Below, piece after piece: positions 607 to 40,550 of a stretch of 64,000 bases of DNA (the stretch's first letter is position 1; every line of letters begins with the position of its first letter). This DNA is from a virus, in IMG/VR virus record IMGVR_UViG_3300046820_001050, positions 1 through 64,000 of that record. One strand, 5' to 3'. The notes under the pieces were generated by a model, which saw only the letters and a program-made list of their open reading frames with translations, was not told the origin of the DNA and made no database searches. A program made the translations under genes and the position numbers.

Positions 607-788
607 TGATGACTCGTAAAGACTACATCGAAACTGCAAAAATTCTAAATCAATTTGCAAATGAAATTGATTCAAAAAATTTTCAAGATTTAATTTTTGA
701 ATTTAGCGAATGGTTTGCTTCAGATAATCCAAGATTTGACGAAAATAAATTTTGGGATGCTTGCGTTAAAGAATTAGCAAACGTATAA
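606..788 (+). CDS. conserved phage hypothetical protein (MTRKDY...DNPRFD..KF..AC type)
   Basis: TAATG coupling to upstream gene; recognisable small phage protein pattern. Confidence 0.8.
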   Translation: MMTRKDYIETAKILNQFANEIDSKNFQDLIFEFSEWFASDNPRFDENKFWDACVKELANV

Positions 789-791
789 AAA

Positions 792-819
792 AGATCCTGA
801 GCATGATTTCAAACTGCTC
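792..819 (+). ncRNA. repeated H-type pseudoknot motif, copy 1
   Basis: AGATC-CT-GAGCA-T-GATTT-CAAAC-TGCTC, 3 nt after a stop codon. Confidence 0.75.
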
Positions 820-844
820 AAATTTTTCCTAGGTGCCTAGGCCG

Positions 845-874
845 TTATCCACAGGTCAGACTAAGTTATCCACA
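845..874 (+). promoter_or_regulatory. two perfect DnaA boxes
   Basis: TTATCCACA at 845-853 and 866-874, within a GTTATCCACAGGTCA direct repeat. Confidence 0.7.
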
Positions 875-886
875 GGTCATTTAAGA

Positions 887-902
887 TGTGAGATTAAACA
901 CA
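887..902. promoter_or_regulatory. CRP/GlxR-like box (1 mismatch)
   Basis: TGTGA-GATTAA-ACACA. Confidence 0.5.
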
Positions 903-950
903 CCCAAAACCTGTCCACATTTTGAGATTTTAAGATTTTAATTTGATAAA

Positions 951-972
951 TGTCAGACCCCCATGATAGGAT
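951..972 (+). promoter_or_regulatory. TGTCAG-N10-TANNNT promoter (representative of 7 copies)
   Basis: TGTCAG acccccatga TAGGAT; same spacing at 43, 325, 2378, 3698, 4467, 5106. Confidence 0.75.
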
Positions 973-1014
973 TACAGAGTAATAAAGTAAATAAACAAAC
1001 GAAAGAGGTTGCTC

Positions 1015-1227
1015 ATGTCAGCAAATGTCTATACAATAGAAAACCTACTTGTAGGAAAAACTTATAAGTCTCGTACACTTACGGGAGAAATTATTGATGC
1101 AGAAAAAACAAATGATGTATGGTATGCAAATTGCGATACATACAGAGTGCAGGTACGCCCCCACTACTCAGCACCACTTAACTTAAAAGATACTTACCGC
1201 TATTTAGCAGTAAAGACAGGAGAATAA
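1015..1227 (+). CDS. small beta-rich hypothetical protein
   Basis: SD AGAGG before ATG at 1015. Confidence 0.7.
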   Translation: MSANVYTIENLLVGKTYKSRTLTGEIIDAEKTNDVWYANCDTYRVQVRPHYSAPLNLKDTYRYLAVKTGE

Positions 1228-1229
1228 TA

Positions 1230-1406
1230 ATGAACACATGGAATTGCATGGAATGCTATGATGAGGGCGTACTATTTTGGGGTAGCACTAATGGCGAATA
1301 CGATACAGACTTTTGTGAGTGTAACAAGGGTGTTATGCTTTACAACGAATACACCGCATGGTATGCTGAGAACGAATTAAACGAATACACATTGGAGAAC
1401 GCATAA
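1230..1406 (+). CDS. 58-aa Cys-containing hypothetical protein (not in ORF track)
   Basis: MNTWNCMECYDEG...FCECNKG; SD AGGAG; stop overlaps next ATG. Confidence 0.7.
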   Translation: MNTWNCMECYDEGVLFWGSTNGEYDTDFCECNKGVMLYNEYTAWYAENELNEYTLENA

Positions 1407-1627
1407 TGAATAATGAATACCTATACTCAATAACAGTAACCTATGACTCAGGCACTAAGCCTAATTGGACAGGTCGCTACTCAGATGCTTTAACTGCCGT
1501 GGAAGCATACCAGCGCTTTGTTGATGTCGGGTTTGCTAACGAATACACAACAATTAATTTATCAGAGCCGTCAGGCAAAATGCATACAAAAATAATTGAC
1601 CGCATGGGAAAGGTAACAACACGATAA
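1406..1627 (+). CDS. hypothetical protein
   Basis: coupled ORF with GGAG SD. Confidence 0.75.
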   Translation: MNNEYLYSITVTYDSGTKPNWTGRYSDALTAVEAYQRFVDVGFANEYTTINLSEPSGKMHTKIIDRMGKVTTR

Positions 1628-1899
1628 TGGGAAGCGTAACAGCATTGGGAATACAAGATAGCGTACTTGATTTAGAAACTCAGATTGCTTATCACTTACA
1701 GGGTAATCACTATCCACCCGTTCCACTAAGCATGGTGCAACCTTGCATTGACGCTATTGATGCATACTATGATGAGGACTATGACCGATTTATTGCTATG
1801 CCTGAAGGCGTATTCTATAAGGGCATGAGTCATGCACCAGCAAGCGCAGTAATTGAACAACACCACTTATCTTTTTGGTTACCAGAAAACGAGGGGTGA
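1627..1899 (+). CDS. conserved actinophage-type hypothetical protein
   Basis: HLQGNHYPPVP...C..AI...HHL pattern; coupled ORF. Confidence 0.75.
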   Translation: MGSVTALGIQDSVLDLETQIAYHLQGNHYPPVPLSMVQPCIDAIDAYYDEDYDRFIAMPEGVFYKGMSHAPASAVIEQHHLSFWLPENEG

Positions 1900-1903
1900 G
1901 TAA

Positions 1904-2143
1904 ATGTCTGATACAATGATAAGCATGGAATTGATACACGCTGATAACTTAACCGCAGATCAAATCATGATTGGTGATTTAATCAAGATTGATAATGACA
2001 TCGTTGAAGTTATTTTTATTGAAAGCGATTCAACAGGTGATAACTATGACATACAAACGCAAAATGAGTTTGGTGAAAAAGAAGTTACACAGTATGCATA
2101 CACTGATTTAATTCCGTTGTATGTTTTTACTGAAGAAGAATAG
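1904..2143 (+). CDS. acidic hypothetical protein
   Basis: ORF with GAGG SD. Confidence 0.7.
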   Translation: MSDTMISMELIHADNLTADQIMIGDLIKIDNDIVEVIFIESDSTGDNYDIQTQNEFGEKEVTQYAYTDLIPLYVFTEEE

Positions 2144-2216
2144 TAAAAGTATTTTTATGCACTTCCCCGCATAAAAATGCCTAGGCATTTTACCTAGCGT
2201 GTCGTTTTGTTTTTGA

Positions 2217-2272
2217 TGTGAGATTGATCACTTTACGTAGCATTTGACATTTTTTCCCAAGTCTGCTAAGAT
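2217..2272 (+). promoter_or_regulatory. CRP-like box plus sigma-A promoter driving a leaderless gene
   Basis: TGTGA-N6-TCACT (2217-2232); TTGACA(2244)-17-TAAGAT(2267); ATG 7 nt downstream. Confidence 0.65.
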
Positions 2273-2278
2273 TAATTT

Positions 2279-2419
2279 ATGAAAAAAAATAAAGAGGAAT
2301 TACGTAGGCTTATGGAACTCCGTAGGTCTAACGCTGCCTCTGCCGTACCCAATAAGAAAAAGTATAACCGTAAAAAATGTCAGTCCCTTATGTTAGAATT
2401 AAAGAAAGAAAGAGAGTAG
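2279..2419 (+). CDS. 46-aa basic peptide (leaderless, not in ORF track)
   Basis: MKKNKEELRRLMELRRSNAASAVPNKKKYNRKK... Confidence 0.6.
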   Translation: MKKNKEELRRLMELRRSNAASAVPNKKKYNRKKCQSLMLELKKERE

Positions 2420-2425
2420 CCCACC

Positions 2426-2536
2426 ATGGATTTTTATGACGATTACTATGAAACAGACATGCTACGCCCAAGCGCTAAGGCATGCTATTGTAAACTCCAT
2501 TCAATTTGCGCTAACTGCAAGGAGAGTTACAACTAA
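2426..2536 (+). CDS. 36-aa Cys-rich peptide
   Basis: MDFYDDYYE...CYCKLHSICANCKESYN; coupled to next gene. Confidence 0.55.
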   Translation: MDFYDDYYETDMLRPSAKACYCKLHSICANCKESYN

Positions 2537-3258
2537 TGACTAAATTACTAAGATCTAAAGATAGAAAGGTGGCTAACCTTGTCACACCCAACGGGAAACA
2601 AGCAAGTATTGCTAACACATTCGGACTACCTGCAGGAAAGTCTTATTCATGTCCTGGCGCAACGTCTGTCTGCGAGAGTGTTTGCTACGCAGGCAAATTG
2701 GAAAAGGTCTTTCCAACAGTAAAGAAAAACCTATTGCACAATTGGTCATTGCTTAAAGACGCAGACGGCGAAACCATGGTGCGTCTAATTAATGAAATGA
2801 TCACAGAATTCAAGGCTGATTGTGTAAAGCGTGAGGCACCTATGCTATTCCGTATCCATTGGGACGGAGATTTCTTTAACGATACTTATACATATGCGTG
2901 GAAAGTAGTTATTGATAAGCACCCTGACATTCAATTTTGGGTATACACTCGTGTGAAGAGTGCTGCACTTATTCTTAAGGATGTATCTAATCTATCATTG
3001 TATTTTTCTGCTGACAGTGAGAATGTTAAAACTGCCGTTGATCTAAAAATTAATAGTGGCGTACGTATGGCATACCTTGCTAAGAATTTTGCTATAGGTC
3101 AAGCAGATGTAAAAGAAATGATTGGCCGTCCTGCTGCTAAGTGTCCTGAGAATAATAAGCAAATTCCACTTATCTCAACTAATGGTAGCGCTTGCGTTTC
3201 TTGTTCATTGTGTGTATACTCTAAGAGTGACATAATTTTTTCTGCCACTAAGAAATGA
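2536..3258 (+). CDS. Gp88-like Cys-cluster protein (radical-SAM-like)
   Basis: CPGATSVCESVCYA, FRIHWDGDF, FWVYTR and C-terminal C..C..C, typical of the phage gene product 88 family. Confidence 0.75.
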   Translation: MTKLLRSKDRKVANLVTPNGKQASIANTFGLPAGKSYSCPGATSVCESVCYAGKLEKVFPTVKKNLLHNWSLLKDADGETMVRLINEMITEFKADCVKREAPMLFRIHWDGDFFNDTYTYAWKVVIDKHPDIQFWVYTRVKSAALILKDVSNLSLYFSADSENVKTAVDLKINSGVRMAYLAKNFAIGQADVKEMIGRPAAKCPENNKQIPLISTNGSACVSCSLCVYSKSDIIFSATKK

Positions 3259-3389
3259 GACAAGATGTTTGATATAGTTATTTTATTTTTAACTGCAATA
3301 TTTTTATATGCAATGTTTGCAAGCCCGTTGTGAAATGGGCACCTAGGCGCAAAACTTTTTCATTGTCAAGTTTAGACACGCACAAACTA

Positions 3390-3405
3390 TGTGATTAAGG
3401 TCACA
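3390..3405. promoter_or_regulatory. perfect CRP/GlxR box
   Basis: TGTGA-TTAAGG-TCACA upstream of -10 TATACT at 3449. Confidence 0.65.
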
Positions 3406-3488
3406 CACAAAAAACCTCGCTAAATTGGTATTTTTGACATTTTTTTGCTATACTTAATACATACCCAAAAACGAAAGGAAGTCCCCAC

Positions 3489-3659
3489 ATGACACTCCAC
3501 GGATACACTTACCAAATTGGTGACCTATTTACAACAAGCAAGACAGGCATTACAGGTCGTATTGCAGGTTTTGCCCCAATGTCTAATAAGGTTACCAGAG
3601 TTAGTCTTGTTTTGGCAAATGGCTCTCGTCGCCTTGCTATGGTCAAGACCTCTAAATAA
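3489..3659 (+). CDS. 56-aa SH3-like small protein (not in ORF track), paralog of next gene
   Basis: YQIGDLFTTSKTGITGRI aligns with YKVGDTYTTQKSKVTGVI; SD AAAGGAAG. Confidence 0.75.
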   Translation: MTLHGYTYQIGDLFTTSKTGITGRIAGFAPMSNKVTRVSLVLANGSRRLAMVKTSK

Positions 3660-3757
3660 TCTCATAATTTGAGATTTATCCCCTACGATTTGTAAAATGT
3701 CAGTAGGAAATGTTATACTTAATACATAAGCAACCAACTAATAGAAAAGGAAATAAA

Positions 3758-3925
3758 ATGTCAGTAGCAACAGCAACATACAAGGTAGGCGATACCTACA
3801 CAACTCAGAAGTCAAAGGTAACAGGCGTTATCACAGAAATCACACCTAACGCAAATGGTCAATCAGTTCGTGTTAAGTTAGATGTAAATGGACAGGCTCG
3901 TTACACAACTTGGACGGCTAAGTAA
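3758..3925 (+). CDS. 55-aa SH3-like small protein
   Basis: SD AAAGGA before ATG 3758; promoter 3698-3719. Confidence 0.75.
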   Translation: MSVATATYKVGDTYTTQKSKVTGVITEITPNANGQSVRVKLDVNGQARYTTWTAK

Positions 3926-3936
3926 TTTAATTACTA

Positions 3937-3963
3937 ATTCCTGAGCAAGAATACAAACTGCTC
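3937..3963 (+). ncRNA. pseudoknot motif, copy 2
   Basis: ATTC-CT-GAGCA-A-GAAT-ACAAAC-TGCTC. Confidence 0.75.
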
Positions 3964-3998
3964 AAACCAACCCCCTAACAGTAAAGGAACAGACCCAC

Positions 3999-4421
3999 AT
4001 GGCAAGAGGAAAAGCAATCTCAGTAAAAATCGCAACACCAAAGGTAATCAAGGCTCTCGAAGGCGCACTCGCAAAGTTAGAACTTGACTACACATCACAA
4101 GAAGCAAACGAAGCAAAGTATGAGAAGGCAAGACAGAAGTGGCAGAAGGAACTTAGTGACTATGCCGTTGCCAACATCAAGAAGGCAGAAAACTTCCGCA
4201 CATCTTATCGCTCATGGAACAATACACTAAACATTGACTATGACTTAACAGTTGCAGAGAAGGATTTGCCTAAAGAGCCTCAGCGTGACTTTGTTGTTAT
4301 GCACCAGCATACATACAATGACCAAAAAGAGGAAATGCTTAACGCAATTCGTATTCTCAAGATGACAGATGAGGAAACAGTCAATACCAGCACTTACAAT
4401 GCGGTTGCTCGTTATCTCTAA
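3999..4421 (+). CDS. conserved actinophage-type hypothetical protein
   Basis: 140-aa ORF, SD AAGGA, strongly biased codon usage. Confidence 0.8.
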   Translation: MARGKAISVKIATPKVIKALEGALAKLELDYTSQEANEAKYEKARQKWQKELSDYAVANIKKAENFRTSYRSWNNTLNIDYDLTVAEKDLPKEPQRDFVVMHQHTYNDQKEEMLNAIRILKMTDEETVNTSTYNAVARYL

Positions 4422-4433
4422 TTAGATAGTAAA

Positions 4434-4460
4434 CGACCTGAGTATGTCGCTAAACTGCTC
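4434..4460 (+). ncRNA. pseudoknot motif, copy 3
   Basis: CGAC-CT-GAGTA-T-GTCG-CTAAAC-TGCTC. Confidence 0.75.
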
Positions 4461-4520
4461 ACAATTTGTCAGCGGTACATAGTACAATTAAATTAAACCA
4501 ACTAACAGAAAGAGGCCCCC

Positions 4521-4940
4521 ATGGACCAGGTAACAAAAGTAGACAATCACTACATGACACGAGAGTTTTTAGAAACTCAGTTAGTAGAAAACAAAAGTCG
4601 TATTGAACAATTAGAAAAGCACATTCAAACGGTAACCCAACGCTCATATGGCGAGGCTGCAGAACGTTCACGTATGCGTAATGAAATGCAAGAGTGGACC
4701 TTAGAAAACTTAAGCGACGGCACCCTTTCAGAAGGTACTGCAGAAGAGATTGCAAACATTTGTGGATTTGAGTTAACACAAGAATTTGAATTAGAAGTTA
4801 CAGTTCAATATTCAATTACAGTCAATGCACGTAATGAAGAAGAAGCACAGAATTTAATTCATGATATTGATTTTGATTCTGTATCAGAGCCACAAGGCGT
4901 AACATACCTGTCATCCAGCGTGGACCGTATAGATATTTAG
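4521..4940 (+). CDS. acidic coiled-coil hypothetical protein
   Basis: ORF with AGAGG SD, behind promoter 4467-4488. Confidence 0.75.
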   Translation: MDQVTKVDNHYMTREFLETQLVENKSRIEQLEKHIQTVTQRSYGEAAERSRMRNEMQEWTLENLSDGTLSEGTAEEIANICGFELTQEFELEVTVQYSITVNARNEEEAQNLIHDIDFDSVSEPQGVTYLSSSVDRIDI

Positions 4941-4954
4941 TAGGGGGCTACTAA

Positions 4955-4982
4955 TAAACCTGAGCATGTTTAAAAACTGCTC
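4955..4982 (+). ncRNA. pseudoknot motif, copy 4
   Basis: TAAAC-CT-GAGCA-T-GTTTA-AAAAC-TGCTC, preceded by hairpin TTAGTAG-GGGG-CTACTAA. Confidence 0.75.
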
Positions 4983-5158
4983 CTCATTGCCCAAAAATTT
5001 CCTAGGTGGCCTGTGGATAACTTTGTCAAGTCGACACGCTGAAATGTATGGTCATAGTTTACGATCTGTCCGTTTTGTCCCCGTATAACTATCCTGATTT
5101 GCATTTGTCAGCCCGTCCTGTTATACTTAAATAATCAACAACAAAAAGGAGAAAACTC

Positions 5159-6175
5159 ATGGCACATGAACTCGAAACACAAAATGGCGTTGCATCATTT
5201 GCATCATTTCGTGAACCCGCTTGGCATGGATTGGGTACCGTATTTACAGAAGAAAAAACAACAAGCGAAATGCTTGCTGCTGCCAATCTAAATAATTGGA
5301 ATGTTCGTCTGGAAGATTTGGAAACCCCATCACATTTAACAAGCGACAAGGCGTACCAGTATGTCTTGCGTACTAACCCTACTGATAACTCTCAGACCGA
5401 CATTCTTGGTGTCGTTGGTGAGCGTTACCATGTAATGCAGAATGAAGATTTATTCTCATTCGGTGATAACATTCTTGATGGTGGTGGTCGTTGGGAAACG
5501 GCTGGCTCAATCAAGGGTGGTCGTGTCGTATTCGGTGCGTTAGCATTAGAGCGTGAAACAATTCTTGACCCTAACGGTGTCGCAGATAAGGTAAAGACTT
5601 ATTTGCTTATTAACACATCACATGATGGCTCAATCGCTATTCAAGCAAGCATTACACCTGTTCGTGTTGTGTGCGCTAATACTCTTAACCTTGCATTGAA
5701 TACAACTAAGCGCAAGGGTGGCGTTAAGCAATCTTTCAAGATTCGTCACACACAGACCGCACAAGGCAAGATTCAAGTTGCTCGTGAGACTCTTGGTCTT
5801 GCACATAAGTACATGGATTCTTTTGACCTTATGGCAAAAGCAATGATTGAAACAGAAGTTAATGCTAAGCAATTTAACGACATCATTCTTGCTGCATACC
5901 CAAAGCCTGAAAAAGACTCTAAGGGTGCTTTCAAGAAATGGGAAAACAAGGTAGATGTTATCAATGACATCTACACAGGTGAGTTTAATGGTATGATTGC
6001 TGGTAACGCATGGGGTGCTTTCAATGCACTAACAGAGCGTTTAGATTGGTACCGTTCTGCTCGTGGTGGTTCTAACGAATCTATCCTTGCATCTGCAAGT
6101 GGTTTTGACCCTGCTATCAATGCAGAAAAAAATCGTTTGCTGAAAGTTGTGCAAAGCACTTTGCAAATTGCATAA
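5159..6175 (+). CDS. DUF932/DUF945 family protein (LGT_TIGR03299-like)
   Basis: MAHELE...PAWHGLG...LGVVGERY...QN...ETAGS..GG...SHDGS...TPVRVVCANTL...IRHT. Confidence 0.9.
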   Translation: MAHELETQNGVASFASFREPAWHGLGTVFTEEKTTSEMLAAANLNNWNVRLEDLETPSHLTSDKAYQYVLRTNPTDNSQTDILGVVGERYHVMQNEDLFSFGDNILDGGGRWETAGSIKGGRVVFGALALERETILDPNGVADKVKTYLLINTSHDGSIAIQASITPVRVVCANTLNLALNTTKRKGGVKQSFKIRHTQTAQGKIQVARETLGLAHKYMDSFDLMAKAMIETEVNAKQFNDIILAAYPKPEKDSKGAFKKWENKVDVINDIYTGEFNGMIAGNAWGAFNALTERLDWYRSARGGSNESILASASGFDPAINAEKNRLLKVVQSTLQIA

Positions 6176-6182
6176 TTAAAAA

Positions 6183-6210
6183 AATTCCTGAGTAAGAATT
6201 AAAACTGCTC
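6183..6210 (+). ncRNA. pseudoknot motif, copy 5 (just 5' of tRNA-Asp)
   Basis: AATTC-CT-GAGTA-A-GAATT-AAAAC-TGCTC. Confidence 0.75.
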
Positions 6211-6217
6211 ACCATTA

Positions 6218-6291
6218 GGTCCGTTAGAATAGTTGGTTAGTTCGCCACCCTGTCACGGTGGAGGTCACGGGTTCAAGTCCCGTACGGATCG
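6218..6291 (+). tRNA. tRNA-Asp(GTC)
   Basis: cloverleaf: GGTCCGT/ACGGATC acceptor, CCACC-CTGTCAC-GGTGG anticodon arm, TTCAAGT T-loop; no encoded CCA. Confidence 0.95.
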
Positions 6292-6443
6292 CAAAAAATT
6301 CCTAGGTGATCTAGTTAGTCTAGGTGTCCGATATGTCCGAATTGACATTTTTAATAATATCTATTAAGATCATCAAATAATATTTCCTGGATTTTCCGAT
6401 TACGATACTTGACATTTATCTCCCAAACCCCTATAATTAGTAT

Positions 6444-19510: not shown

Positions 19511-19585
19511 GCACCAGTAGCCAAGTTGGTTAAGGCACCGAACTCATAATTCGGCTATTCGTAGGTTCAAGTCCTACCTGGTGTA
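19511..19585 (+). tRNA. tRNA with CAT anticodon (elongator Met or Ile2)
   Basis: GCACCAG/CTGGTGT acceptor; CCGAA-CTCATAA-TTCGG; lacks initiator GGG/CCC. Confidence 0.9.
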
Positions 19586-19644
19586 CTTGACATACCGTGC
19601 CAAAATCGGTATAATTATCATATAACTACTAACAAAGGATAAAA

Positions 19645-20022
19645 ATGAAGAAAGTAATCGTATCTCTATTAGTTGCAGGACTATGTATTTTTTCTGTTGT
19701 TCCATCGCAGGCTGCTGTAAGTAAGGCAAATAAGGTTGCATGTACTCAGACCATGGGTCTAATCGCTCAAATGTATATGTCAAATATGGCTTCTGATACA
19801 CCAACTGTTCATGATGCAAAATGGGAAAAGAGTGTTAAGTTAAAGGCTACGAAATTACGCTCATATGCAAAACCAGCAACAGGCAAAATTAAGTCACAAA
19901 TCAATTCTATGGCAGCAACTTTTGATAAGGCTATTAAGTTAAAGAATGACGAAGATGCTTCTTTTGAAAATTCTTTAAATTTACTTACACAGTCAAATGT
20001 ACTTGAAGTGTTGTGCAAATAA
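19645..20022 (+). CDS. secreted helical protein
   Basis: signal peptide MKKVIVSLLVAGLCIFSVVPSQA; AAGGA SD. Confidence 0.7.
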   Translation: MKKVIVSLLVAGLCIFSVVPSQAAVSKANKVACTQTMGLIAQMYMSNMASDTPTVHDAKWEKSVKLKATKLRSYAKPATGKIKSQINSMAATFDKAIKLKNDEDASFENSLNLLTQSNVLEVLCK

Positions 20023-20168
20023 TGTACGAAGACGATAGTATATTCTCAGATTACGATAACGATACCTACGACCATAACCCTTTCTTAGGACCAAGAGATG
20101 TAATTGGATCAGAAGATAATTGGGGAATAAACGCTCCTGATTGGGCATAATCGGGTAGTTAAAGGTTT

Positions 20169-20242
20169 ACATCTGTAACTCAGTTGGTTAGAGTACCTGC
20201 CTTATATGCAGAGAGCCGAAGGTTCAAGTCCTTCCAGATGTA
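20169..20242 (+). tRNA. tRNA-Ile(TAT)
   Basis: ACATCTG/CAGATGT acceptor; CTGC-CTTATAT-GCAG; TTCAAGT. Confidence 0.9.
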
Positions 20243-20246
20243 CTGT

Positions 20247-20319
20247 GTCTCCATCGTCTAGTGGCCTAGGACTCTGCCCTTTCACGGCAGCAACACGGAT
20301 TCGAATTCCGTTGGAGATA
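20247..20319 (+). tRNA. tRNA-Glu(TTC)
   Basis: GTCTCCA/TGGAGAT; CTGCC-CTTTCAC-GGCAG. Confidence 0.92.
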
Positions 20320-20323
20320 CTAT

Positions 20324-20395
20324 ACCTCTGTAACTCAGCGGAAGAGTAGCGGACTTCTAATCCGTTTGTCGCAGGTTCGATTCCTGCCAGGGGTG
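20324..20395 (+). tRNA. tRNA-Arg(TCT)
   Basis: ACCTCTG/CAGGGGT; GCGGA-CTTCTAA-TCCGT. Confidence 0.92.
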
Positions 20396-20525
20396 CTTTA
20401 CTTTTTAGGATGCTTTGGTTCGTATGGTGCAATCTTAGACTTAATGCGACCATCTTTATATAATCTAACAATCCATCCATCTTTAATCTGAATAGGATTA
20501 AACGCTAATGATTTTTTCTTTGGCA

Positions 20526-21611: not shown

Positions 21612-21881
21612 CTATTGTCCAGTTAGCCTGTTATGAGTTCTTATCCTATGACAATTAGCACAGACTACCTCACACTTTTCAATCTCTTTCTTAATAGCCT
21701 TCCAGGAAAACCCATCATGGATCATTCTGGATATGTTATATTTTTTGTCTCTTATGTGGTCAAAATCTAAGATAATGTGGTTGCTTATTCCACAATCTGC
21801 ACAGCCAGAATCTTCTTTTATTTTAGCAAGCATCTTTTTATACTGTTGCTTATTATAATGGTCTAACTCTTTGTCAGTCAT
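21612..21881 (-). CDS. small HNH endonuclease
   Basis: CADCG...LDFDH...EIEKCEVVCANCHRIRT; own TATAAT promoter. Confidence 0.85.
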   Translation of the reverse strand: MTDKELDHYNKQQYKKMLAKIKEDSGCADCGISNHIILDFDHIRDKKYNISRMIHDGFSWKAIKKEIEKCEVVCANCHRIRTHNRLTGQ

Positions 21882-21908
21882 TGTTATTATTATACCGCCA
21901 AATGTTAG

Positions 21909-21992
21909 GTCCCACACAAGCAATTCACCTGACTTGCGCCACGGTCTCTATCCAATGGGTAACTAATCCATCACTAAGGTCCTGTGTGGGAC
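21909..21992 (-). ncRNA. putative 84-nt structured ncRNA
   Basis: 12-bp terminal helix GUCCCACACAGG/CUUGUGUGGGAC, GCAA tetraloop; 5' G lies 7 nt after TG-C-TACAAT. Confidence 0.65.
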
Positions 21993-22015
21993 AATTATAT
22001 TGTAGCATAGGAAAT

Positions 22016-22128
22016 GAGCAGTTTATAGACGACTGCTCAGGTCTATTAGCCACGAAGATTTAACTCCTGCTAACTCTCTTCTCATAAGAGCATCCGTTGC
22101 AAAACCTTTTAAAGTCTTATAGCGGAAT
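22016..22128 (-). ncRNA. putative ~113-nt ncRNA: three hairpins plus pseudoknot copy 6
   Basis: follows TATAAT (22141-22136); ends in ATAGAC-CT-GAGCAGT-C-GTCTAT-AA-ACTGCTC. Confidence 0.6.
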
Positions 22129-22172
22129 AGTATCTATTATACTACCTAGTTTTACATGATATACTGTTAAGC

Positions 22173-22847
22173 ATGAACGGTAAAAAAATAATAAGAGGCC
22201 AATTAGGATACAATGAAGAAAAAACATATGGAAGCGATGAAATAGAAATGGCATTTCCCATATCGCAAAATCAGTTAAATAATGCAAGACTGTTTACATC
22301 TAAAGATGAGTACGCAAAAACCCTAAATAAAAATCTATCCTATTTAGAGGTAGGCGTTGCTTGGGGCTATTCTGCTCAAATATTTATAAATACAACAAGC
22401 GCTAAAAGTGCTGACCTTGTAGACTTTTATAACAGTGCTTATGGAATTGCAGTACAAGAAGACCGTCCTTTAGAAAACATTTCAATAACACATGAACAAT
22501 ATATAAAAAATAAATTTTTGTACCACCCTAATATAAATGTAATAAAGGGAGATGCAAAAGACATAATTCCAACACTGGATAAAAGGTATGACCTTATTCT
22601 ATTAGACATGGACACAGATAGATTATTAATAAGGAACCTGCTGAGACATTGCTCTAAATTAACTAATGTTGGTGGAGTTGTGGGCCTAACTTCTTATATA
22701 AACTATGACAGTATTTTGTATAATCATCCAGTAGGGGTATTCCAAAGTGTAAATGAATTTTTACATTTTAATAGTAACTGGTCTGTAGATGCAATGGTTT
22801 TAAATGATCTTGGATTTCATGATATATACATAAAGAAAAATTCATAA
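22173..22847 (+). CDS. class I SAM-dependent methyltransferase (Methyltransf_24-like)
   Basis: YLEVGVAWGYSA, IKGDA, YDLILLD, GV..SVNEF; lone + strand gene, leaderless. Confidence 0.75.
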   Translation: MNGKKIIRGQLGYNEEKTYGSDEIEMAFPISQNQLNNARLFTSKDEYAKTLNKNLSYLEVGVAWGYSAQIFINTTSAKSADLVDFYNSAYGIAVQEDRPLENISITHEQYIKNKFLYHPNINVIKGDAKDIIPTLDKRYDLILLDMDTDRLLIRNLLRHCSKLTNVGGVVGLTSYINYDSILYNHPVGVFQSVNEFLHFNSNWSVDAMVLNDLGFHDIYIKKNS

Positions 22848-39256: not shown

Positions 39257-39303
39257 TTTCCCTTATTCTAAAATATTAATACAATAATTATACACCACTC
39301 TTG

Positions 39304-39376
39304 CTGCCCCACCTGGCCTCGATCCAGGGACATCCGAATTAACAGTTCGGCACTCTACCAACTGAGTTATAGGGCA
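39304..39376 (-). tRNA. tRNA-Asn(GTT) with atypical T-loop
   Basis: TGCCCTA/TGGGGCA; CCGAA-CTGTTAA-TTCGG; T-loop ATCGAGG. Confidence 0.88.
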
Positions 39377-39379
39377 ATA

Positions 39380-39406
39380 GGGCAGTTTTAAGTCATGCCT
39401 AGGACT
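39380..39406 (-). ncRNA. pseudoknot motif, copy 7 (between S8 stop and tRNA-Asn)
   Basis: AGTC-CT-AGGCA-T-GACT-TAAAAC-TGCCC; compensatory change in stem 2. Confidence 0.7.
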
Positions 39407-39411
39407 ATTTT

Positions 39412-40311
39412 TTAATTACGAATATATGATGCAGAACCAATCAAAATCTTTGGCAGAGAAGTTAGATAATCTCCAAAAGTTTTGTCTGTATTTCTACTCA
39501 CGTATGATGCTGCTGATACCACGGTTGCTACAGAACTTCCAGCAGTATCTGTTGTTGAGCCATTGTACTTGGTAATAGTTACCTTTCCAGGTGCAACCAT
39601 ATCAAGTCCAGGACCTGTATTTGTTGCTGTCTCTAGTTGCGTTGCAATAGAAAAAGGTCCTGAAACAGTATTAGCCAAAGCACCAACACCAATTACTCCC
39701 TCAATACATGCAGGAAATCCAACAATATCTCTTCGTCTGTCATTGCCTGTTGCAACAAATACTGGGATATTGCTCTTACCTAAAGATGCTACTGCATTAA
39801 TAGCGACTGTGTTTGTTGAGCATAGTGCAAGGTTACCTGCACTGACTGAAGACTGACTAATCGATAGAGCATCAATGCTGTACTTTGCTGCGTTCTGTGA
39901 TACCCAATTCATTGCTGAAACTAATGATGTTACCTGGCTAGAAAGCATATTTTGATTTCCATTTTTGTCTGTATTTGAAATTCTTATGAATACAATTTTA
40001 ATATTGGGGTTAGCAGTAAGGGCAGACTTAACCATCTGATCTCCATGATAAATTCCATTATTAATAGATGTTGGCCATGCTACTGCTGCTGCACCTTTGC
40101 CTTCCATAAAAGTGTTGCCGTTGGGACATGCTACTGGATTTGCAATCACATTTTGTCCTGTAAAACAAACCTCATGAATAATTGATGGAAAGTTATTTGA
40201 GTTAATAGCAGAGTCAATGACTGCTAATACTCTTTCATCTTGTGCTTGCGCTGGCTGAATTGCTGTAAATGCAATTGTAATTGATAGTAGTGCTAGTAGT
40301 AACTTCTTCAT
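39412..40311 (-). CDS. secreted subtilisin-like (S8) serine peptidase
   Basis: signal peptide; AVIDS (Asp), YHG (His), ATGND (Asn), AGSS.AT (Ser). Confidence 0.8.
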   Translation of the reverse strand: MKKLLLALLSITIAFTAIQPAQAQDERVLAVIDSAINSNNFPSIIHEVCFTGQNVIANPVACPNGNTFMEGKGAAAVAWPTSINNGIYHGDQMVKSALTANPNIKIVFIRISNTDKNGNQNMLSSQVTSLVSAMNWVSQNAAKYSIDALSISQSSVSAGNLALCSTNTVAINAVASLGKSNIPVFVATGNDRRRDIVGFPACIEGVIGVGALANTVSGPFSIATQLETATNTGPGLDMVAPGKVTITKYNGSTTDTAGSSVATVVSAASYVSRNTDKTFGDYLTSLPKILIGSASYIRN

Positions 40312-40331
40312 TATTTTCTCCTTGTTATTAT

Positions 40332-40550
40332 TTATTGTTTGATTTTTAAAACTAATTGGCATGGGTCTCCGCCTTCTTCCCACTCTTGCTGTTCTTCTTT
40401 AGTCATGTAAGGATCTCCTTCATGTGTATTGCAGAATGGCTCTGTTATCCATCCCCGCTCAATTCCATTTTCAAGCCAGATCTCAAACTCATCAAAGTCT
40501 GACTCCATATTCTGAATGTCCTTTAGGATCTCTTCAAATTCTTCGTTCAT
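40332..40550 (-). CDS. acidic hypothetical protein
   Basis: W...G...GW...C.THEG...EEW..GGDPC. Confidence 0.7.
   Translation of the reverse strand: MNEEFEEILKDIQNMESDFDEFEIWLENGIERGWITEPFCNTHEGDPYMTKEEQQEWEEGGDPCQLVLKIKQ

Follow-up and report, generated by a model that had tools for sequence, protein, structure and literature searches.

What does a virus gain from repeating one short sequence just past its stop codons and, twice, directly in front of a tRNA gene? The question is raised by IMG/VR virus record IMGVR_UViG_3300046820_001050 (98,649 bp, estimated to be ~90% complete), of which we analysed the first 64 kb, referred to below as the window. Seven copies of a ~28-nt element lie in this window, and an original prediction, made from the letters of the window, had described them as a covarying RNA pseudoknot outside any known family. 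We found that the element truly forms an H-type RNA pseudoknot and that its loops are conserved, that it is read as RNA of the sense strand, and that its position is set by the end of the upstream gene.

Fold and covariation

The element consists of two interleaved helices. Stem 1 (S1) has 3–5 bp of any sequence and a C-G top pair; stem 2 (S2) has 5 bp, usually GAGYA/UGCUC. Loop 1 (L1) is CU, the junction loop (L2) is 1 nt long, and loop 3 (L3) reads N(0-2)AAAC. A scan of IMG/VR with the core pattern CTGAGYA-N(5-9)-AAACTGCTC gave 146 listed matches, 139 of which have an S1 of at least 3 bp, and L2 is almost always 1 nt. Here and below, counts from IMG/VR pattern scans are samples among the matches listed, not totals, and the frequencies of S2 types depend on the scan patterns chosen.

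A covariance model (R1) was built from an alignment (A1) of 103 copies, all from other IMG/VR contigs. S1 covaries in it, with 159 double-sided cells versus 55 in shuffles, and none of 500 shuffles reached that number. Its top pair is C-G in 102 of the 103 copies, pair 2 is U-A or A-U, pair 3 occurs as all four Watson-Crick types (G-C 41, A-U 24, C-G 21, U-A 17), and pair 4 is paired in 81%.

Since the sequence of S2 is fixed by the seed pattern, this stem was tested through natural mutants, using four extra IMG/VR scans in which the partner base was left free and only hits with an S1 were counted. When G of pair 1 is replaced by A, the partner is U in 85 hits (compensated) and C in 6 (mismatched). 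The same replacement at pair 3 is compensated by U in 41 hits and leaves C in 3, and at pair 2 a partner C faces G in 87 hits and a mismatched A in 2. Among chance hits that lack S1, the compensated-to-mismatched ratios are merely 18:8, 38:25 and 16:9. This ratio test is the unbiased measure; a further alignment (A3) was chosen for S2 pairing, so its figure of 100% paired is circular. Pair 4 is seen as C-G, U.G and U-A, and one copy has an extra C-G pair inserted in S2. Pair 5, the A-U at the junction, is almost invariant and gives no evidence of covariation, with only 3 compensated cases. Each of the two interleaved helices thus shows covariation, as an H-type pseudoknot should.

The loops are conserved in their own right. 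When L1 was left free, CU was found in 47 of 59 hits with an S1 of at least 4 bp, and the other 12 were scattered, each occurring once or twice; when L3 was left free, AAAC preceded the 3′ strand of S2 in 34 of 38. Wobble pairs (U.G, 129 of 2030 S2 cells) would become A.C if the other strand were read. The claim that the element is a conserved RNA and not a DNA operator is therefore borne out by covariation in both stems, by G.U wobbles that suit the sense strand only, and by the conserved loops. Predicted energies of the single stems are marginal (–0.4 to –6.5 kcal/mol), which would fit a fold that needs conserved tertiary contacts.

Variants of the fold were also seen. At L081:6626-6673 and L089:3081-3143 a whole hairpin (13–30 nt) is inserted at L2, indicating that the junction position points outward. 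A sub-class has AAAAGGCUC(A) in place of AAACUGCUC, which moves the pairing to UGAGC/GCUCA at the cost of the junction A-U (L049:3673-3705, L049:3323-3355, L016:11345-11377, L082:1975-2007, L071:2947-2967 and L096:4529-4549). Three knots of the AAGCA/UGCUU type lie ~315 nt apart at L268:2437-3101, which points to small gene cassettes arranged in tandem, with a knot at the end of each.

Placement relative to genes, ribosomes, tRNAs and U-tracts

An open reading frame (ORF; ORFs were called mechanically) ends on the same strand at most 80 nt upstream of 115 of 158 copies. Most other placement statistics rest on a pool of 406 copies, drawn without redundancy from 309 loci. Between the stop codon and CU the spacing has a sharp wall at 9 nt, with 59, 34, 22, 20 and 20 copies at 9, 10, 11, 12 and 13 nt and only 10 of 364 below 9 nt. 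An S1 of 3–4 bp hence starts 5–6 nt past the stop codon, and a ribosome with a stop codon in its A site stops unwinding mRNA about 5–6 nt past the stop. The next start codon led by a Shine-Dalgarno sequence has a floor at ~20 nt downstream of the knot; it falls at 20–39 nt in 81 of 257 cases, and the rest are broadly spread. The wall on the stop side and the broad distances on the start side imply that the knot is anchored to the upstream gene and lies just clear of the mRNA covered by a terminating or an initiating ribosome. It is often internal to an operon. The upstream genes encode DUF932 proteins (17 of 102) or are small ORFs with no Pfam match; they are not structural genes.

Two further kinds of neighbour recur on the 3′ side. 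In 29 of 406 copies (7%), with various S2 types, the knot lies 2–13 nt (mode 4–5) before a tRNA, and the tRNAs are of eight identities. A T-rich 8-mer directly follows 107 of 406 copies (26%), roughly four times the control level (21–32 at four of five control offsets and 4 at the fifth; ~28 at random positions). Canonical hairpin-plus-U terminators downstream of the knot are as rare as at random (6 of 406 versus 6).

The flank itself is also biased. Among 153 copies, position +1 is A in 70% and positions +2 and +3 are C in 48% and 41%, with G in only 1% and 5%; the flank is G-poor for ~9 nt. The avoidance of G at +2 and +3 can be attributed to competition with S1, since a G at either position would lengthen S2 across L1. 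That argument does not explain the excess of C: UGCUC is followed by ACC in 28 of 153 copies (18%) and by ACCA in 17 of 153 (11%), versus roughly 1% expected. In the 30 nt past the knot, structure is weaker than in controls (mean minimum free energy (MFE) –2.2 versus –3.1 and –3.7).

Distribution and novelty

The carriers are unrelated phages numbering in the hundreds. Single copies were found in four cultured phages: cyanophage S-RIM4 of Synechococcus (Kyanoviridae; MK493321, 45611-45643), thermophilic phage D6E (GU568037, 3757-3789, in the gap between the portal and scaffold genes), Paracoccus phage ParKuw1 (Autographiviridae; OQ376857, 28607-28639) and Aeromonas phage phiA050 (PP763568, 33592-33624). 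No copy was found in Streptomyces phage Riptide, which has the closest homologue of the DUF932 protein of our virus, or in phage T5. In a pattern scan of bacterial genomes, 85 of the 123 hits lacked S1 and represent chance, and ~22 of the matches listed were canonical; these lie on genome or metagenome-assembled-genome contigs labelled Saccharibacteria, Aminicenantes, Calothrix, Alistipes, Eubacteriales and others, and most of them are on metagenome-assembled contigs, which may be phage-derived. Some copies probably belong to units read by phage polymerases or by different polymerases. Since the carriers are so diverse and share no obvious specific protein, the partner of the element would be either universal or absent; candidates for a universal partner would be the ribosome, PNPase or RNase II/R, and RNase P.

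That the element belongs to no known family agrees with Rfam 15, where only six tRNAs match at gathering thresholds and where a search of positions 700-6400 and 21800-22250 with E up to 10 gave nothing on the element. A text search of ~8.4 million papers for the core strings returned only unrelated primers, and topical searches found no description. A catalogue of 8,495 unnamed candidate RNAs from IMG/VR, published in 2023 (PMC10690425), may include it.

The seven copies in their genome

The virus encodes a mycobacteriophage-type GP88 protein, a DUF932 protein and a DnaE-type polymerase. The nearest homologues of the DUF932 protein are in Streptomyces phages (52% identity), the G+C content is 38%, and the host is probably a low-G+C actinobacterium. 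The first 6.5 kb form an early-type region of small ORFs, several with sigma-70-like promoter matches on their 5′ side; a megablast of this region against 50,697 phage records found no relative.

All seven predicted copies are present, with the S1 sequences, CU and AAAC loops and sense orientation that had been described for them. The core pattern matches six times in the window (797-819, 3941-3963, 4438-4460, 4960-4982 and 6188-6210 on the plus strand and 22016-22040 on the minus strand), versus none in 100 dinucleotide shuffles. A search of the whole 98,649-bp record with R1 returned exactly the seven copies and no others, with E-values of 8e–12 to 3e–9 for six of them and 0.002 for the seventh; the next hits are at ~2 or worse. 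The reported distances to the neighbouring genes are likewise correct, with the first base of S1 3–14 nt past a stop codon, tRNA-Asp at 7 nt and tRNA-Asn at 3 nt.

Copy 1 (792-819, plus strand; R1 E-value 3e–10) follows the TAA at 786-788 of ORF 606-788. It is made up of S1 (792-796/805-809), L1 CU (797-798), S2 (799-803/815-819), L2 (804) and L3 (810-814), and is followed by the U-rich tract AAAUUUUU and a CCUAG hairpin. Copy 2 (3937-3963, plus; S1 3937-3940/3949-3952, CU 3941-3942, S2 3943-3947/3959-3963) lies between ORF 3710-3925 and an ORF that starts at 3999; since no promoter was seen between them, this copy is operon-internal. Copy 3 (4434-4460, plus) contains GAGUA/UGCUC with a U.G wobble, follows ORF 3999-4421 and precedes a promoter-like site at 4466-4494. 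After copy 4 (4955-4982, plus), which follows ORF 4521-4940, come a CCTAGG at 5001 and a promoter-like site at 5098-5127. Copy 5 (6183-6210, plus), again with GAGUA, follows the DUF932 gene (5159-6175) and is separated by ACCAUUA from tRNA-Asp(GUC) (6218-6292, plus). Copies 2–5 were all recovered by both the pattern and R1. The order gene, pseudoknot, tRNA-Asp was found in ~12 other contigs among the matches listed.

The remaining two copies are on the minus strand. Copy 7 (39380-39406) follows ORF 39412-40383 and sits directly upstream of tRNA-Asn(GUU) (39303-39376, minus). It is an AGGCA/UGCCC variant, for which a change from A-U to G-C in S2 had been claimed; this change is real at pair 2, but pair 1 is an A.C mismatch. 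Copy 6 (22016-22046) has S1 AUAGAC/GUCUAU and a 3-nt L2 (GUC), and an 8-bp plain hairpin is possible as its alternative fold. It had been said to end a putative noncoding RNA (ncRNA), and it indeed forms the 3′ end of a conserved RNA of ~120 nt (22016-22135, minus). The body of this RNA (22047-22135) has its own TAGTATAAT promoter, which overlaps the upstream stop codon. Its three hairpins covary among at least seven IMG/VR contigs, one 7-nt loop is T-loop-like, and Rfam has no match to it. The element ends two small RNAs in all: at L105, L029 and L043 another small RNA-like unit lies ~70 nt 5′ of the knot, in which a TATAAT box is followed by two GC-rich hairpins and then the knot, with no ORF, and this unit is a second ncRNA family with the knot as its 3′ end.

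Several features lie close to these copies. Directly after copy 6 there is a second promoter-driven structured RNA (21900-21992, minus), in which a 12-bp closing stem (GUCCCACACAGG/CUUGUGUGGGAC) encloses two hairpins (MFE –31.8 kcal/mol, z = –3.0); contig L059 has a near-identical counterpart, and Rfam has no match. CCTAGG occurs in the window at 828, 836, 2180, 3342, 5001, 6301 and 9276. Its frequency in the whole genome is as expected (12 versus 11.8), but these seven of the 12 sites gather where early transcription units end, mostly in the form (A)nTTCCTAGGTG or as a CCUAG hairpin 3′ of a pseudoknot or of tRNA-Asp; the motif may be an early terminator or operator. A cluster of four tRNAs (Met, Ile-UAU, Glu and Arg-UCU; 19511-20396, plus), three of which are spaced by only 3 nt, has no pseudoknot on its 5′ side.

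A proposed 3′-boundary module at gene ends

We tentatively prefer, at a little under even probability, to read the element as an autonomous gene-end module that protects the 3′ ends of upstream transcripts and serves as a terminator hairpin where a U-tract follows. Acting in cis and folding by itself, the knot would lie as near the stop codon as the terminating ribosome permits and could therefore be folded while the upstream gene is still being translated. New 3′ ends would arise by termination at the U-tract in a quarter of copies, by RNase P cleavage at a tRNA next to the knot, or by a different cut within the flank. The unstructured, G-poor flank would offer a single-stranded landing zone to 3′-to-5′ exonucleases (PNPase, RNase II and RNase R), which would trim up to the knot and halt, leaving the upstream message or small RNA with a defined and protected 3′ end.

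Two aspects of the data point this way. The conserved half of the element (S2, L1 and the junction) faces 3′ and the weak, variable S1 faces 5′, an arrangement consistent with a barrier to enzymes that arrive at the 3′ side. Moreover, copies before tRNAs, before U-tracts and at the ends of small RNAs place the element where 3′ ends arise. The context thus favours protection of mRNA 3′ ends, including those freed by tRNA processing, the first of the functions offered in the original prediction. Other observations weigh against this reading. In 16 of 406 copies a canonical terminator stands between the stop codon and the knot, so that transcripts ending there would be without it. The wall at 9 nt equally fits any function that needs a folded element beside the ribosome, and the sequence of S2 is conserved beyond what pairing demands, for which a specific binding partner could be responsible instead. 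Finally, plain hairpins usually suffice as 3′ stabilisers, which leaves the use of a pseudoknot unexplained.

Several of the same features could be read differently. Intrinsic termination as the main role, with the pseudoknot replacing the GC-rich hairpin and S2 sitting in the RNA exit channel before the U-tract, would account for the excess of T-rich 8-mers (copy 1 of the window has one), for the lack of extra canonical terminators 3′ of the knot, for loci where a hairpin-U terminator is followed in tandem-like fashion by a knot-U module, and for the +1 A, which can lengthen S2 to 6 bp. We nevertheless consider it unlikely. The U-tract is missing in 74% of copies, +2 and +3 are C-rich, and one copy lies in the late region of a member of the Autographiviridae, presumably transcribed by the phage RNA polymerase. 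Furthermore, next genes that begin 20–39 nt past the knot leave no room for a promoter, and together with the closely following tRNAs they require that transcription passes through the knot. For a terminator without a U-tract, another option of the original prediction, the operon-internal copies and the 26% that do carry a U-tract argue against any general role. The C-rich flank, in turn, invites comparison with tRNA: stacked S1 and S2 would mimic an acceptor/T minihelix whose end is made and maintained by RNase P, RNase Z, the CCA-adding enzyme and RNase T. The expected features, namely G1-C72, U at –1 (an invariant U lies directly 5′ of G1), a discriminator A and often CC(A), can be recognised; the A at +1, C-rich +2 and +3 and the ACC/ACCA excess agree with them, as do the repeated adjacency to tRNAs and the tolerance of L2, the topological place of the D and anticodon arms, for inserted hairpins. 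Such mimicry is improbable all the same, given that ACC(A) occurs in only ~11–18% of copies, that the stack has 8–10 bp and not 12, and that this phage genome encodes no CCA-adding enzyme. In addition, RNase P cleavage at U|G would ruin the knot and leave the upstream mRNA bare, and S2 extension in competition with S1 is a simpler cause of the missing G at +2 and +3. About equally improbable is a roadblock or insulator facing 5′, which would stop RNase J or sliding and re-initiating ribosomes and shield the RNA downstream, like the exoribonuclease-resistant RNAs (xrRNAs) of eukaryotic viruses. The position of the knot exactly at the entry-channel edge of the terminating ribosome would suit this role, and so would an architecture like that of coremin/xrRNA-WCC and of BWYV-type knots, which stall Xrn1 and ribosomes (PMC10520033, PMC10321173). 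However, the position is set by the upstream stop codon and not by the downstream start, a promoter or a tRNA, and not mRNA in need of protection, lies 3′ of many copies, the stem facing 5′ attack is the short, AU-rich and variable S1, one copy is in an Aeromonas phage and gammaproteobacteria are not known to have RNase J, and the second hairpin that coremin requires is missing.

A ligand or protein site, whether a riboswitch-like aptamer, a decoy or sponge, or an antitoxin mimic, has rather little probability in our view. About 15 of the 28 nucleotides are conserved in sequence, size and topology resemble preQ1-I aptamers, and many copies lie on abundant early transcripts, yet there is no expression platform: the knot is at least 20 nt from the next ribosome-binding site and no terminator follows it. 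Neighbouring genes are unrelated and mostly without known function, the very diverse carrier phages have no evident specific protein in common, and Rfam gives no match. Nothing in the analysis speaks for the antitoxin mimic that had been offered as one option. A very small self-cleaving ribozyme parting the cistrons is very improbable. Conserved unpaired nucleotides within a pseudoknot would be in keeping with one, and small ribozymes are frequent between phage genes and close to tRNAs, but 28 nt is far below the size of any known self-cleaving class, no hammerhead, twister, pistol, hatchet or HDV model matched, and the core CUGAGYA differs from the hammerhead core CUGANGA. Least credible of all is a role at the DNA level, with the RNA fold incidental to a recombination or cassette-shuffling site or to an operator. 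The element does flank small early-gene cassettes with their own promoters, as in the PeSL modules of T4-type phages, and near-identical 23-nt cores in unrelated phages might provide microhomology. Against this, S1 varies in sequence and keeps its pairing, the U.G wobbles do not survive on the opposite strand, the interleaved layout is no DNA palindrome, and the orientation is always sense. Two decoding functions were rejected as well. A slippery heptamer (X XXY YYZ) at 5–9 nt upstream accompanies 13 of 406 copies versus 11 and 9 in controls, which dismisses a frameshift signal, and there are no extended frames of the kind that a readthrough signal would need; open frames spanning the knot show no excess (23 on the same strand versus 31 on the opposite).

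If a 3′-boundary module is the right reading, a bolder proposal follows, which we regard as possible rather than probable: with this element, bacterial viruses would have their first class of exoribonuclease-resistant RNA, a 28-nt device that needs no protein and that defines and protects 3′ ends in hosts of many phyla behind any polymerase, and that with a U-tract doubles as an intrinsic terminator of pseudoknot type. In its boldest form the A-CC(A) tail would also mimic tRNA 3′ ends for host trimming and repair enzymes. The structures known at message ends in bacteria and phages are mostly plain hairpins, and tiny enzyme-blocking knots are known mainly from plant and animal viruses. A near-invariant 28-nt knot in phages of cyanobacteria, proteobacteria, a thermophile and probably actinobacteria, and in contigs binned with further phyla, would make a portable RNA part of unusual universality. 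It might account for the independent, stable messages of small early-gene cassettes and for the survival of messages when neighbouring tRNAs are cut, and synthetic biology could gain from it a 3′ stabiliser or insulator that is very short and does not depend on the host. The fold is now secure enough to be tested directly by structural and enzymatic means, and the four cultured phages each provide a copy.

Comparison with known systems

The 3′ stabilisers of bacteria and phages (intrinsic-terminator hairpins, REP elements and the hairpins of T7 RNase III sites) share with the element an intercistronic or gene-end position in sense orientation, the association with places where 3′ ends arise and, in some copies, a U-tract. 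Those are plain, often GC-rich hairpins, whereas the element is a pseudoknot with conserved loops and one near-identical core across phages of many phyla. For the tRNA-like traits, the nearest counterpart is the acceptor arm of plant-virus tRNA-like structures such as that of turnip yellow mosaic virus, which is also a pseudoknot and in which the 3′ strand likewise runs into A-CC(A), as in a minority of our copies, and the terminal pair is G-C. In contrast to it, the element is internal to transcripts and not at a genome 3′ end, its stack is shorter, ACCA is present in only ~11% of copies and there are no analogues of the D and anticodon arms. The preQ1-I aptamer (RF00522), ~30 nt long, is a minimal H-type pseudoknot as well and its 3′ loop is likewise A-rich, but its conserved nucleotides differ, Rfam gives no match, and the element neither lies in 5′ untranslated regions of queuosine genes nor overlaps a ribosome-binding site.

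Closest in architecture are the frameshift knots of the beet western yellows virus (BWYV) type and coremin/xrRNA-WCC, although the element is a member of neither. The luteovirus-type knots that stimulate –1 frameshifting (those of BWYV, pea enation mosaic virus 1 and sugarcane yellow leaf virus) are likewise ~28 nt long. In them, too, both stems are short, L1 is 2 nt long and starts with C, one nucleotide forms the junction, L3 is rich in A and closes with AAA(C) beside S2, and a spacer of 5–9 nt leads to the ribosomal site. The element differs in lying past a stop codon and not a slippery heptamer, with no overlapping –1 frame, in having 5 bp in S2 versus their 3 and a weak, variable S1 versus a GC-rich one, and in occurring in DNA phages, in several copies per genome. 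With coremin xrRNA-C and xrRNA-WCC (PMC6546385, PMC10520033, PMC10321173) it shares a hairpin of 4 bp with C-G as its closing pair and a loop whose pairing partner is a spacer containing UUAAAC, and it would also share the principle of a small mechanical block independent of protein; the GAG/CUC of xrRNA-WCC corresponds to the distal part of S2. Membership in coremin was nonetheless rejected. Its loop 1 has the consensus YGAD or YGNNAD, with G-GAG in the WCC variant (PMC10520033), whereas the loop of the element is CUGAGYAN (8 nt) with U and not G at position 2, and the required second hairpin (hp2) is missing, a hairpin at offset 0 being found in only 21 of 406 copies. The S2 of the element comprises five canonical pairs, the host enzymes are different ones, as bacteria are not known to have Xrn1, and the direction of protection is likely the opposite one. 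Overall, we suggest that the element perhaps works like an xrRNA while standing outside that family.

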